From Candidatus Moanibacter sp. (GTDB lineage: Bacteria > Verrucomicrobiota > Verrucomicrobiia > Opitutales > UBA2987): 64,000 nt of DNA. Location: assembly GCA_965215885.1 (NCBI GenBank), contig CBDCEW010000104.1, positions 64,001 to 128,000 on the forward strand, given 5' to 3'. A model generated the notes under the pieces. The model searched no databases. It worked only from the letters and a program-made list of their open reading frames with translations, and had not been told where the DNA came from. Below, piece by piece: positions 32,895 through 61,303 of this stretch. Position numbers and translations under genes: made by a program. Within the stretch, counting starts at the first letter, position 1, and each line of letters opens with the position of its first letter.

Positions 32895-33040
32895 AAAGGT
32901 GATCCGTTCAGTTCAGGTAAGGCGCCGTTCCACCTACATCCATTCGGGTGGAGATTGTCAAATCGTCTCGGACAAGGCAGCGATTATTCAGCTGTTCGGC
33001 CCTAATCTCTGGTTTTTGTTCACTGATTACCCACAGATGC

Positions 33041-34014
33041 TACCGGGAGAGTCTGCGCGACATCGAAACCTGCCTGCGGGCAGTACAACCAAAACTATAC
33101 CACGCAGGGATTCGAAGCGGAGTATCCAAAAGCACGCTCGCCGATGCCAACGAGAAACGAGACTGGCGCATCTACGCCGACTTTGCACAGGTCCTCATCG
33201 CAATGGCTCGTCCTTTGTATTCAAACGAGGATCTGGGCATCGACCTGGACAATACGCTCTACGCTCTGGACTCCACCACGATCGATCTATGTCTATCACT
33301 CTTCCCGTGGGCACGTTTCCGCAAGCACAAGGGGGCGGTGAAGGTCCATACGCTTCTCGATCTCAGAGGCTCTATCCCTTATTTTATCGAGATTACCGAT
33401 GGAAAAGTGCACGACGTAAACATTCTGGATCTCATCAAGGCCGGTGCTTACTATGTAATGGACCGAGCCTATCTGCATTACGAGCGCCTCTATCGGATCG
33501 CACAATGCGGTTCTTTCTTCGTGAGGCTGCCCCGGTCTTGTGCCGGGGTGGCGCACCGTTGCCCTGGTCAGCTTCTATCCTGCCAAGGCCTACCCCGAAA
33601 GACTCCGGCGTATCACTTACCTCGACCCCGACAGTTCCGAGCGCTTCGTGTTTCTCACCAACCAGTTTGCCCTCCCAGCCATAATCATCACCCAGATTTA
33701 CCGTTTACGCTGGCAGATCGAATTGTTCTTCAAATGGATCAAACAGCACTTGCGCATCAAGAGCTTTTTCGGCACCTCCGAGAATGCTGTGAAGACTCAA
33801 ATCTGGATTGCCGTCAGCGTCTATGTGCTCATCGCCATCATCCGCAAACGCCTTCGCCTGGAGATCAGTTTGCACAAAATCCTACAGATTCTCAGCTTCA
33901 CCCTATTTGAGAAAACTCCTATGACTGAACTACTTACAGAAACCGATTACACTTTCAATGAACACCGCATTCCTAAACAGTTGGAGTTGTTTGACTTATA
34001 ACCGGACAGTACTG
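33041..34014 (+). mobile_element. IS4-family element remnant, 5'-truncated, with a disrupted transposase
   Basis: YRESLRDIE, STLADAN, ALDSTTI, VMDRAY, Y..RWQIELFFKWIKQHL (YREK); right end TAACCGGACAGTACTG. Confidence 0.9.
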
Positions 34015-34686
34015 GTTTTTGTTCACTGATTACCCACAGATGCTGAATTGAATCTTCTCTGGCGTACAGCAGAACGGCCTGAGGCGGTGGCCTAACGTTT
34101 AAAGCATGTAGAAGCGGGCTTGGAAAGAACCCACCCCTAATCCCTCCAAGGAGAGGAACCTGTTTAGCGTTTCTGAGGCTGCCCCGGTCTTGTGCCGGGG
34201 TGGCGCACGGTACACAGCTACAATACGCAATTGCCACCGTTTTCCCCCCGCCCGTCCCTTCTCGGCCCAGTCCCGGCGCCCCGGGACTGGGCCGAGAAGG
34301 GACGGGCGGGGGTTGGTAGAGGCACACGGTTTATAGCAGTGAACGCGCGCCCCCCGGCACAAGACCCATAATTACGAAATTGGGTTGGAGAACCCAAAGT
34401 AAATGTTATTCAGGCACTTGCAAGATTCTATTGATTACATAGTATGCCAGAATGGAGTTTCAACGATTGTTGTGTGTGGGTTCGTTAGAGGTAGAGAGCT
34501 TTTCCTGCAGGTTTGTTTTCAGTTAGAAACTTGTTGAGTATTAATCAGTTACAAAAGCGCTTTGAACGGGGAGTTGATTTCTGGTGGCAATTGAGTAGAA
34601 GCGAAGGGAGCTGGAGAAAGTTGGTATTGGCATTGTATGTAAAATAAAGTTTGCAGTTTTGCCTCCTTTCCATACTGTGCCGGTGC

Positions 34687-35403
34687 ATGCAAGAAGAGCT
34701 TTCGCGTAAAGAGAGGGAGGTGGTCGAAGCGGTACGGCGGGATCGGGTAAGCACGGTGTGGAGGCTGATGAAGGAGCAGAGGGTGTCGCGGCGAACGGTC
34801 TATCGGGCTTTGCAAAAATATGGCCATTACTCCAGTTACAATGCCAATTGTGGCTACCTGAGCTTGAAAGACATTCCGCGCTTTGACGGGGCCGGTTTGT
34901 GGCGTTTTCGCAAGGGGCGCTTTTCGCGCCACGGCACCTTGGAGGAGACCGTGGAGGCGGTGGTGGGAGCTTCGCTTTGCGGCTACACGGTGGCTGAGTT
35001 GGAGACCCTCCTTGGGGTACGGGTGCACAACCCCATAAGCGTGCTTTGTAGAAAGAAGCGGTTGAGTCGATACTATGAAGGGCGTCACTGCGTGTATGTC
35101 TCGGCCGGGGAACAGGGCGGGGCCGAACAGAAAAAGCGGCGGCAAGGGCGAAGAACAGCGGCACAAGTTCAGGCAGGGGACCCCGGGGGCGCTTTGCAGG
35201 CAGCTCCCGAAGGGCTCGAAACGATGGTCGTGATCGCTTTGCTGGTCGCCTGTATCGGCCATCCCGAGGCCGGGGTCAAGGAGCTTGTCGAGCTTATGCA
35301 AGAGCAGGGAGTAGAGCTGAGCGGGGAGCAAATTGAGCGGGTGATGGCGTTTTACTCGCTCAAAAAAAACCGGACCGATCGCGGTAGCGGAGCTGTTACA
35401 TGA
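34687..35403 (+). CDS. IS ORF1, probable HTH DNA-binding part of the transposase
   Basis: SRRTVYRAL, YSSYN, FD..GLW, FSRHGTL; A8 run (LKKN) near the end. Confidence 0.75.
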   Translation: MQEELSRKEREVVEAVRRDRVSTVWRLMKEQRVSRRTVYRALQKYGHYSSYNANCGYLSLKDIPRFDGAGLWRFRKGRFSRHGTLEETVEAVVGASLCGYTVAELETLLGVRVHNPISVLCRKKRLSRYYEGRHCVYVSAGEQGGAEQKKRRQGRRTAAQVQAGDPGGALQAAPEGLETMVVIALLVACIGHPEAGVKELVELMQEQGVELSGEQIERVMAFYSLKKNRTDRGSGAVT

Positions 35404-35404
35404 T

Positions 35405-37222
35405 TTGCGGGCAGAGGCTGAACGGGCCCTGCAAACGGTGGGGGCTGTGCCTGCGCAAACGAGTTATCGCTTCGATGCCCGGGAGGACGAAGAGGGTCCT
35501 TCAGAGGTGCGCAAGACCCTGCGCCGCAAGGTGGTCAGTTTCTCCTATGGATGCTTCCAGGCGGTGGAAGTTGTGCGCGAGCAGGGGCAAGGGAGCCACC
35601 GCAACAGCTACCGTTCTGCTCGCCTGGAACAGATCGTGCCCTCGCATAGTCGCTACGCTTACGATCTGATTGCCTATGTGGGCAAGCGATGTTTGTGCGA
35701 AAGCGCCACCCTCAAAGAGGTGCACAGGGAACTGCGCGAGGGCCCGGGGCAGCTGCAGATTGCTCAAAGCAGCCTCTATGAGATGCAGCAGAAGTTTCTT
35801 TTTTATCTGGGTCGGCTGCACGCCGCGGCCGCTCCGGTGCTTAAAGATTACCTGAGCGCTCGCCCTTGCCTGCGCTGGCTGGTGGATGGGACCGTGGAAC
35901 CGCAGACGCCGGTTTTCTTCGCTGTTCAGGAAGCCGACGAAGGGATCCTTTTGGGCAGCTGGAAAATGCCTTCCGAACAGAGCGAAACGATCAGTGGCTG
36001 TTTTGCCCGGGCGGCCCGGGCTTTTGGCCAACCCCACCATGTCTATCATGATTTAAGCGCTCAGATCAGCAAGGCCTGCGAGAGCGAAACCTTCCAGGCC
36101 CCCCATGGCGTCTGCCATTATCATTTCGCCCGCAATGTGGGCGAACAGCTTTATCGAAAACCCCAGCAGATGCTCAACGGGCGCTTGCGGCAATTGAAGC
36201 TCATGGAGCGCATGCGCGAGCAACGCAAACACATCACCGCAAAGCTCCGTGACGCCCTCCGTGAAAAACACGCCCTCGTCCTGGCCGATTTGCTCACCGC
36301 CAAAGCGCTCGCAGTGCCCTTCGATCCCACCCTTGCACGGGAACTGCTCATGGCCCTGCAATTGTGGATTTTGGATTATCCCTGCGACGGTCACCGCCAG
36401 GGCTTTCCCTTCGATCCTTACCTGCTTTATTGGCATCGGCGGGTCGTGCGCGCCCATGCCGCCCTGGAGCAGTGGCTTGCCCGCGCTCCTGCCAGTTGCT
36501 CTGTTCTGCGAAGCTTCTTTCATCTTTCGACCGGGTTGAAGCAGTATCTGGCTGATGCCCTCGTCATCGAAGCCGCTACTATCTATGAAAACGCTTTTTG
36601 CATTTTCAGCGCTTTGCGCGATGCCCTTTGGCTCAGCGCCAGCGGCCCCTGCCCTTTAAGCGACCCTTATCTGTTGCAAGCAGGACAAGCCGCTGAGCTC
36701 ACCGAGGCTCTCCAGTTGCTGCGTGCCCAATATCGCCAAAAAGGCGCCTCCCTGACCAACCCCTCGAAAGCCAAACTCTACCGCACCGTGGTCACTCATC
36801 TGGACAAATACTGGCAGCGGCTGCTTCCCCCACCGGCCCATCCAGACAGCGTACGCACGACCAATGAGCTGGAAGGCACCTGGCGCACCTCCAAGCGCAA
36901 ACGCCGTCAAACCCACGGGCGCAAAAATCTGACGCGCGACTTTGAAGCGCTCCCCGAAGAATACATGCTCCTGGCCAACTTACACAATCCCCGCTATGTG
37001 GAGCTGGTTTTAGGCAGTATCGATAATCTGCCCCAAAAGCTTGCCCAGGCTGCACAGAAAGCACCCCCCTTCAGTCACTGGCGGGCGAACAGAAAAACCC
37101 TCGCCGTGGGTCGATTGCCCAAAAAGCTCCTGCGAAAAGAAAACTTCCTTGAGGAACTCTTCGAAGTCTGTAATCGCCAGGATCAATCCTTAAACCCGCA
37201 ACCCCATCGGATTGCCTCCTGA
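35405..37222 (+). CDS. IS ORF2, DDE transposase catalytic part
   Basis: LVDGT (D1), HDLS (D2), CHYH (CxxH), RTTNELE (E). Confidence 0.8.
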   Translation: MRAEAERALQTVGAVPAQTSYRFDAREDEEGPSEVRKTLRRKVVSFSYGCFQAVEVVREQGQGSHRNSYRSARLEQIVPSHSRYAYDLIAYVGKRCLCESATLKEVHRELREGPGQLQIAQSSLYEMQQKFLFYLGRLHAAAAPVLKDYLSARPCLRWLVDGTVEPQTPVFFAVQEADEGILLGSWKMPSEQSETISGCFARAARAFGQPHHVYHDLSAQISKACESETFQAPHGVCHYHFARNVGEQLYRKPQQMLNGRLRQLKLMERMREQRKHITAKLRDALREKHALVLADLLTAKALAVPFDPTLARELLMALQLWILDYPCDGHRQGFPFDPYLLYWHRRVVRAHAALEQWLARAPASCSVLRSFFHLSTGLKQYLADALVIEAATIYENAFCIFSALRDALWLSASGPCPLSDPYLLQAGQAAELTEALQLLRAQYRQKGASLTNPSKAKLYRTVVTHLDKYWQRLLPPPAHPDSVRTTNELEGTWRTSKRKRRQTHGRKNLTRDFEALPEEYMLLANLHNPRYVELVLGSIDNLPQKLAQAAQKAPPFSHWRANRKTLAVGRLPKKLLRKENFLEELFEVCNRQDQSLNPQPHRIAS

Positions 37223-37488
37223 CAACGACTCCAGTGCCCTCCCTCTGCTCCCCATTTTCTTCATGCTCTAACCAGAGAACTCCACGCAATTTGCGTGCCA
37301 ACCGAAATTCAGAACGATGGGCACAAGACCGGGGCAGCCAGCAATCAAGGGCACGCTAAACAGATACAGCGGCAGAGCGAGCTTCCTACCCCTCACTGCC
37401 GAAGGCGCTTAGGTACTGGACGTTGTCCACAAGATCCATTTTCTTTGAAAGAACGGGCACTGGAGGGTTTGGACGATGAGTTACTCCT

Positions 37489-61224: not shown

Positions 61225-61303
61225 ATTGTAGTTGTATACCGCGCGCCACCCCGGCACAAGACCGAGGCAGCCAGCAATGGAAGGGATGACGCTAAACAGG
61301 CAC
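61225..61303. repeat. Half copy of composite palindromic element family 2
   Basis: GCGCCACCCCGGCACAAGACCGAGGCAGCCAGCAAT...ACGCTAAACAGGCAC. Confidence 0.75.

Follow-up and report, generated by a model that had tools for sequence, protein, structure and literature searches.

A high-copy insertion sequence of a predicted Mutator-like family that occupies a fixed site within REP-like hairpin loops

Introduction

Does an intact insertion sequence (IS) that lies exactly in the loop of a repeated hairpin owe its position to accident or to choice, and to which group of transposable elements does it belong? These questions are raised by a 64,000-nucleotide stretch of the Candidatus Moanibacter sp. assembly GCA_965215885.1 (contig CBDCEW010000104.1, positions 64,001 to 128,000 of the forward strand), hereafter the window, which carries a 2,955-bp element, here named IS-A, with two open reading frames (ORFs). 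A preliminary description, made from the sequence of the window, had reported terminal inverted repeats (TIRs) that match at 17 of 23 positions and a perfect 9-bp target site duplication (TSD), all of which we re-measured as claimed, and had proposed that IS-A stands for an unclassified group of the Mutator-like superfamily that uses the palindrome as a safe-haven target. We find that IS-A is a high-copy IS of a predicted Mutator-like family, unclassified against the Pfam and NCBIfam models, and that it is found at one constant 9-bp site within the loop of a hairpin resembling repetitive extragenic palindromic (REP) sequences.

Results

Insertion sites across the genome

Excision of IS-A in silico restores CCCCGG-CACAAGA-CCGGGG, and the empty site thus rebuilt, CCCCGGCACAAGACCGGGGCAGCC, recurs in inverted form at 33525 and 34177 and, differing by one base, at 61249, as had been described. 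Because excision restores the hairpin, the TSD can be equated with the 7-nt loop and one stem pair to either side of it, with the palindrome axis at its centre. In the genome examined (6.36 Mb in 105 contigs), we found 33 left and 33 right ends of IS-A, with most copies more than 99% identical. By script count, a single REP-like hairpin accounts for 56 of these 66 junctions, which fall in exact register on its loop, the remainder being distributed over variants of this hairpin (3), a sister hairpin family (2) and sites elsewhere (5). One of the variants, the right end on C97, was moved by hand to the last group, as it is the partner of the left end on C89 and lies in a reading frame, which gives 56 exact, 2 variant, 2 sister hairpin and 6 other junctions, the latter at three sites. 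With this one re-assignment, 60 of the 66 junctions are in the target hairpin or its sister, so that the other copies, too, lie on the hairpin and not at unrelated sites. As the exact register on the loop corresponds to ∼1.8e-5 of genome positions, chance is excluded. Left ends are split 14/14 across the two orientations of the target, both arm types of the repeat described below are occupied, and six flanks were found twice, leaving 60 distinct flanks. Neither copy number nor targeting is an artefact of assembly, since IS-A reaches ∼150x in the short-read contigs of a public run (X1), against ∼6x for unique flanks, and loose ends in the short-read contigs of X1 and X2 show both target orientations.

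Among the 30 paired copies, the TSD is exact in 12 and one base off in 4, while the flanks are inverted in 9 and otherwise mismatched in 5. Many flanks have been shuffled by recombination between copies or by mis-joined contigs; by analogy with ISRm22, mismatched flanks would be expected from recombination, as they would from mis-joins. The 18 of 30 copies without an exact TSD, the recurrence of several flanks and the ∼200 bp of similar sequence that the doublets share would also suit one or a few entries into the repeat followed by spread through homologous recombination or gene conversion. We regard this as very improbable, given that copies are found in both orientations and on both arm types, that the sister hairpin family and half-site mimics outside the repeat were entered in the same register, and that distant homologues, with 1-3 copies per genome, lie in unrelated host palindromes with intact TSDs.

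Two other delimitations of the element were rejected. That the hairpin halves are parts of IS-A is ruled out by the two orientations, by off-target sites with their own TSD and by a relative that has the repeat without an IS-A match, and an 11-bp TSD with 'CAT' ends is ruled out by the second TIR base, which is variable in homologues, and by one site with an A before the TSD. A multi-copy element of ∼1.9 kb, with ends GACCTTATCCGAAAAG.../...GAATGGGGTC, is nested in the IS-A copies on C96, C79, C89, C99 and C105, at different positions in the individual copies and with short duplications.

The target repeat

The repeated hairpin of the preliminary description is real, with two amendments: it is one arm of a ∼235-bp doublet similar to REPINs (REP doublets forming hairpins), the doublet's inverted arms, ∼174 bp apart, enclosing a long, variable central hairpin, and it is also the target of another IS that is unrelated to IS-A. 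Eighteen doublets are intact in the genome (doublet fold z -12.3), and no Rfam match was found. The same repeat occurs in one of 40 relatives (G011), in which IS-A was not found, so that the repeat can be present without it.

The arms are mostly intergenic, with 13 of the 72 intact empty arms inside long ORFs, which cover 72% of the sequence. This distribution would be compatible with random or weakly GC-biased insertion and subsequent selection that spared only the copies in harmless repeats. However, selection cannot fix a single-base register such as that of the exact junctions, and other intergenic DNA is nearly unused, which leaves this explanation largely refuted. Judged from position alone, the safe-haven benefit proposed at the outset, multiplication without gene breakage, is likely.

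A cognate REP-associated tyrosine transposase (RAYT) did not emerge from the 20 Y1 loci examined, of 29 found in the genome, none of which has arms on both sides. One IS200-type gene in this genome has a doublet upstream; in G011 a 339-aa Y1 gene adjoins a doublet, yet near-identical doublets lie at five other places. Diverged Y1/HUH genes of 330-440 aa number about a dozen in the genome examined (e.g., C36:22995, C44:44610 and C89:58220) and dozens in G011; no repeat arms surround those examined in the former.

Within the window, the isolated arm copy at 33525 lies in a 5′-truncated IS4 copy (33042-34014) between 33-nt direct repeats (33009-34044). A short-read contig of X1 (contig 2) reaches 34012 from other sequence and does not have the truncated IS4 copy here, for which reason this arm may be an assembly artefact, a local rearrangement or a template switch. 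Beside the doublet, at 34043-34159, there is a second dispersed repeat with 73-86% identity to several other places in the genome.

The transposase

The assignment to the Mutator-like superfamily held. Residues D161, D216, C237, H240 and E490 of ORF2 are invariant in 67 aligned sequences, and the closest fold to the ORF2 model (predicted local distance difference test, pLDDT, 84.9) is that of ISCth4 (PDB 6xg8; Z 12.9, 309 aligned residues, root mean square deviation 7.5), with Hermes at Z 10.5 and placed first by Foldseek (E 4e-6). D216 and E490 are separated by an insertion of 274 aa that is mostly helical. The C237xxH240 motif was aligned with the CRVH of the genome's own IS256 transposase, as were the first two aspartates, in a weak alignment (probability 13.6); it follows the second aspartate by 21 aa, two beyond the published range of 11-19 aa, and we counted the C/D(2)H signature as present. 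Against the IS256 model NF033543, ORF2 scores 28 bits for a cut-off of 150, and it stays below the cut-offs of all Pfam and NCBIfam models. Weak matches to the IS256 model occur in 43 of the 67 members (best NCBIfam E-value 1e-6) and to the Pfam MULE domain in 34, of which a few reach this broad domain; models named after ISLre2, ISKra4 or ISMich2, which the library should include, are not among the families matched by the 67 members at E≤0.1. By its conserved residues and predicted fold, ORF2 is assigned to the Mutator-like DDE transposases, outside the IS256 family by model cut-off.

Homologues of ORF2 number 284 among the 8,000 candidates scored, with 433 representatives at E≤1e-30. The 120 matches listed are 42-49% identical to ORF2, the window's own protein aside, and are named 'hypothetical protein' or unnamed; no match was found for ORF2 in 72,556 plasmids, nor for the ORF2 alignment in a PDB sequence search. 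The suggestion of an unclassified group thus agrees with the hidden Markov model searches, in which no model of a classified family reached its cut-off. One Atlas feature neighbour cluster carries the automatic name 'ISNCY family transposase' (506 aa, score 0.96), as might be seen if IS-A belonged to a group listed in ISfinder, such as ISNCY, with known palindromic targeting; this is unlikely in view of the missing models and names and of the plasmids without a match.

A target signature common to distant homologues

A genome scan with ORF2 as the single query gave no match, and one with the alignment as the query gave 32 loci, which by record title belong to Desulfobacterota, Proteobacteria, Chloroflexota, Verrucomicrobiota, Planctomycetota, Acidobacteriota and Spirochaetota; together with the best 80 of 142 metagenomic loci, these make up the 112 loci fetched. 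The homologues have a common TIR consensus of ∼22 bp and, in 64 of 65 two-ended loci, an element length of 2.7-2.9 kb. The terminal C of the TIR, present in 167 of 168 cases, is a partly circular observation, as the search pattern began with C. TSDs at the 56 readable two-ended loci are exact over 9 bp in 13, one base off in 3, inverted in 6 and mismatched in 34, short-read contigs having likely joined the flanks of different copies.

Across 145 distinct homologue flanks, C is found at -14 (81%) and -11 (87%) and G or C at -10; in a dereplicated set of 58 flanks from 61 clusters, C makes up 78%, 81% and 83% at -15, -14 and -11. A symmetric matrix of 10 bits, built from 142 homologue flanks only, places the target loop of the genome examined within the top 76 of 6,359,320 positions. 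Of these 76 sites 56 are repeat arms, and several of the rest are sister hairpins and IS200-end-like hairpins; none of 40 position-permuted matrices did as well. A whole Mutator-like family appears to have repeated palindromes as its target, and the exact site used by IS-A is predicted by a matrix derived from distant relatives.

Flanks also recur between loci, with 83 of 152 in clusters common to at least two loci against ∼5 by chance (loci not dereplicated), and rebuilt empty homologue sites are found 67 times in G001, 40 times in G002 and 40 times in G005, against 1, 0 and 0 for the controls, some sites being counted on both strands. Host-specific high-copy palindromes therefore underlie three of the five homologue sites tested, a set that leaves aside one further site each in G001 (second copy), G005 (C7 copy) and G003 (C107 end); at 1-3 homologue copies each, the genomes G001-G005 have too few for per-genome statistics.

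Some further hairpins touch on this signature. The sister hairpin family, AATCCCCGGCRCRAGGCCGGGGGAT, has ∼10 copies among the top-scoring matrix sites and two IS-A junctions inside it, and IS200-end-like hairpins of the same genome also score high on the family matrix. At the G002 locus L041 (Acidobacteriota), the target has a GTAG tag beside the stem, like canonical GTAG REPs.

One gene from two reading frames

Both ORFs of the preliminary description are intact, and we amend it in that they likely form one gene. The helix-turn-helix (HTH) character proposed for ORF1 agrees with its structural model (pLDDT 90.5), which predicts, besides an HTH and a long helix, two winged-helix-like domains; fold matches are generic winged-helix proteins (Z 7-9.5), and the sequence search gave weak HTH matches only. 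An ORF1 homologue lies upstream of ORF2 in 92 of the 95 loci with room for it. By script, 89 of 95 loci have a run of 7-10 A at the junction, and the other six also have A8-10 near it; relative to ORF1, the frame of ORF2 is -1 in 75, +1 in 19 and the same in 1, and ORF1 and ORF2 matches are combined in one protein in 9 of 12 relatives of at least 740 aa.

In the genome examined, IS-A copies have either A8 (+1; 16 copies) or A9 (-1; 18 copies). Long-read error is ruled out as the source, both lengths being found in short-read contigs; the homopolymer controls for this were 6-mers only, not length-matched. In other ISs, A8-10 runs join two transposase ORFs by transcriptional slippage (PMC1088944), and on sequence grounds slippage at the A-run likely unites ORF1 and ORF2 in a single transposase gene. 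Given the mixed frames, transcriptional slippage would fit better than -1 ribosomal frameshifting alone. A scan of 34340-34720 found no match to a sigma-70 promoter or a terminator.

Other users of the same hairpin

A 1,376-bp element of the IS4 family (NF033592, 122 bits for a cut-off of 115) lies in the same loop in all of its 6 full copies and in 1 partial one (reference copy C44:21144-22519; others on C38, C71, C81, C85, C96 and C14), so that two unrelated DDE transposases share one site. It has perfect 23-bp TIRs, and its TSD is readable as either 9 or 11 bp. A single strict query did not detect it in G011, and it gave no DNA match in E. coli; we take it to resemble IS186/IS421. The hot spot has a third user in a short palindromic insert (...GCCACGGCGAAGCCTCGCGCGAAGACGG...), seen in the loops of other arms at C4:40863, C75:59812, C96:40273, C101:141763, C29:3716, C51:25616 and C94:86897. 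At C100:32828-34031, a decayed transposase-like stretch lies between half-arms of the same orientation, with a cut position unlike that of IS-A.

Table 1. Coordinates of IS-A, its coding parts and the surrounding repeat in the window
Feature	Position	Strand	Remarks
IS-A insertion sequence	34366..37320	+	2,955 bp
Left 9-bp TSD GCACAAGAC	34357..34365	+	7-nt hairpin loop and one stem pair per side
Right 9-bp TSD GCACAAGAC	37321..37329	+	
Left TIR CCATAATTACGAAATTGGGTTGG	34366..34388	+	Variant of family consensus C[ACT]AT[CT][AG]TTCCGAAATT[CT]GGTTG
Right TIR	37298..37320	-	17/23 identity with left TIR
ORF1	34651..35403	+	250 aa from TTG 34651; 238 aa from ATG 34687; intact
A8 run, then C	35362..35369	+	Overlap of ORF1 and the open ORF2 frame; predicted slippage site
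ORF2	35405..37222	+	605 aa, intact; predicted catalytic part of Mutator-like DDE transposase
ORF2 catalytic residues (predicted)	D161 at 35885; D216 at 36050; C237xxH240 at 36113-36124; E490 at 36872		
Left doublet part	34161..34365	+	Outer motif TGTTTAGCG, arm A, central hairpin, inner half of arm B
Intact arm A	34177-34204		Within left doublet part
Central 32-bp perfect hairpin	34245-34312		Within left doublet part
Right doublet end	37321..37362	+	Arm B, outer half; outer motif CGCTAAACA; doublet split by IS-A
Isolated arm copy	33523..33554	+	32 bp of arm replace 82 bp in truncated IS4 transposase gene; doubtful
Empty arm	61249..61272	-	Same repeat, one mismatch

Discussion

How the site is recognised

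The site is probably chosen by sequence, a dimer of the fused transposase reading two half-sites and cutting with a 9-bp stagger about the palindrome axis. Slippage of RNA polymerase on the A8/A9 run would produce a ∼850-aa fusion at low level, and a dimer of this protein would bind half-sites 10-15 bp from each junction, where it would read the symmetric, GC-rich motif that flanks the cut on both sides (about CCnnCS-N9-SGnnGG); either the winged helices of ORF1 or the enlarged insertion domain may be the target reader. Transposition itself could proceed by copy-out/paste-in via a circle, by analogy with ISCth4 (PMC7780238). REP-like hairpins would be the commonest perfect matches to the signature and, being mostly intergenic, would allow spread at little cost to the host. 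Sequence read-out is indicated by the three sites outside the repeat, one of them inside a reading frame, at each of which one half-site is well preserved in register and the stem is slight or absent.

Alternatively, the transposase might capture cruciform or hairpin tips, or proteins bound to REPs, and the consensus would then only reflect the make-up of REP-like hairpins. We judge this possible but rather unlikely: besides the off-target sites, it is opposed by the doublet's central 32-bp hairpin, which is much the stronger structure and yet contains none of the 66 junctions, and by the homologue sites L025, L029, L090 and L118, with only 2-3 pairs of 8. What speaks for it is that the TSD sites of homologues are real hairpins with covarying arms (75 of 128 pairs against 57.8 ± 4.6, 16 sites) and that the small insert, too, uses the loop.

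Several further points count against sequence read-out, some of them in favour of structure or a host factor. Pairing extends beyond the consensus (58 of 88 pairs against 40.4 ± 4.3 at 11 dereplicated sites), the REP site in G002 combines a perfect 7-bp stem with a poor fit of 0.7 bits to the family matrix, and the presence of an unrelated IS4-family element on the same site suggests a hot spot at the level of the host. Among the permuted matrices, the best came near the true one (1.3e-5 against 8e-6); two of the five homologue sites tested are low-copy, with 1 match in G003 and, in G004, 2 matches of a half-site, one being the flank itself. Flanks are shuffled in many copies, as described above, and no circle junction, that is, an end-to-end joint, was found in four runs, searched as contigs only, from which rare forms are dropped.

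What is new

A literature search found no description of this family, its scope leaving out supplementary tables (e.g., those of PMC3942029, which could list a relative). Targeting of REPs is known for single elements of the IS3, IS4 and IS110 families (PMC1525189), and in the published accounts consulted Mutator-like elements insert at random, into an AT-rich motif or adjacent to promoters. New is thus a REP-targeting IS of predicted Mutator-like type, which resembles ISRm22 and ISPsy8 in targeting and IS256 in chemistry, and falls outside the limits of IS256 and of the published p-MULT groups. More tentatively, IS-A may represent a sixth, undescribed p-MULT branch, widespread among uncultured bacteria from seven or more phyla, in which a slippage-enabled N-terminal winged-helix module would read a ∼21-bp symmetric signature common to otherwise unrelated REP- and IS200-type hairpins, making it a single-protein, RNA-free, site-specific DDE integrase specialised for palindromes left by HUH elements. 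Because the matrix predicts the exact site, the question whether REP-targeting DDE transposases recognise sequence, hairpin structure or a host factor becomes testable, and the family supplies natural in-frame fusions, candidate reader domains and, as a control, another IS of unrelated type at the same site. Targeted integration could also profit from a DDE enzyme that has a ∼20-bp symmetric site preference.

Comparison with known systems

With the IS256 family and ISCth4 (PMC7780238), the IS-A family shares an RNase H-like DDE core with a helical insertion, as predicted, the C/DxxH motif, C-ended TIRs and a TSD of 8-9 bp. It differs in size, with ∼850 aa in two ORFs and a family length of 2.7-2.95 kb against one ORF of ∼400 aa, and in target, which is GC-rich, palindromic and described by a 10-bit motif, whereas A/T-rich 8-bp TSDs are reported for ISCth4 and IS256 (PMC7780238). 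The single ORF and the target, not conserved or A/T-rich, that characterise IS256 do not apply to IS-A.

As in p-MULT, the family has TIRs within 18-39 bp, with a terminal C, and an 8-9 bp TSD; however, the 274-aa insert between the second aspartate and the glutamate is twice the 99-138 aa of p-MULT 1-5 (PMC3942029). The ISMich2 group (p-MULT 4) likewise has a Mutator-like transposase in two ORFs joined by a change of frame, with a conserved -1 shift where the IS-A family has -1, +1 and in-frame forms together, and targeting of REPs or palindromes is not reported for it in the available portion of that account (PMC3942029). ISLre2 and ISKra4 insert at a fixed distance upstream of sigma-A promoters, IS-A into hairpin loops in both orientations; a promoter scan of the flanks was not made.

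Joining of two transposase ORFs by an A-run of variable length among homologues is common to the IS-A family and the slippage ISs, the available text of which study has no report on this family (PMC1088944). The target repeat resembles REPINs (PMC3733652) in its inverted palindromic arms and spacer, its mostly intergenic location and its restriction to a lineage, being found also in G011; it differs from REPIN/RAYT systems in that, by eye, no GTAG/CGTC tag stands beside the arms and that no arm-flanked cognate RAYT was found.

The closest likeness in behaviour is to the REP-inserting ISs, namely ISRm22 (IS4), ISPsy8 (IS3) and ISPa11, ISPpu9, ISPpu10 and ISRm19 (IS110), nearly all copies of which, as in IS-A, break the REP at one position, in ISRm22 and ISPsy8 at the palindrome axis; swapped TSDs after recombination are likewise known in some copies, e.g., of ISRm22 (PMC1525189). 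The available part of a review of the IS4 family has nothing on REP targeting (PMC2266710). In the terms of Tobes and Pareja, a fixed palindrome position in most copies makes IS-A a type 1 REP-inserting element. Yet its transposase is of another superfamily than theirs, the sole IS256 member of the survey, ISRm5, lying only near REPs (type 2; PMC1525189), and palindrome targeting in the IS-A family appears to be family-wide and to extend across phyla.

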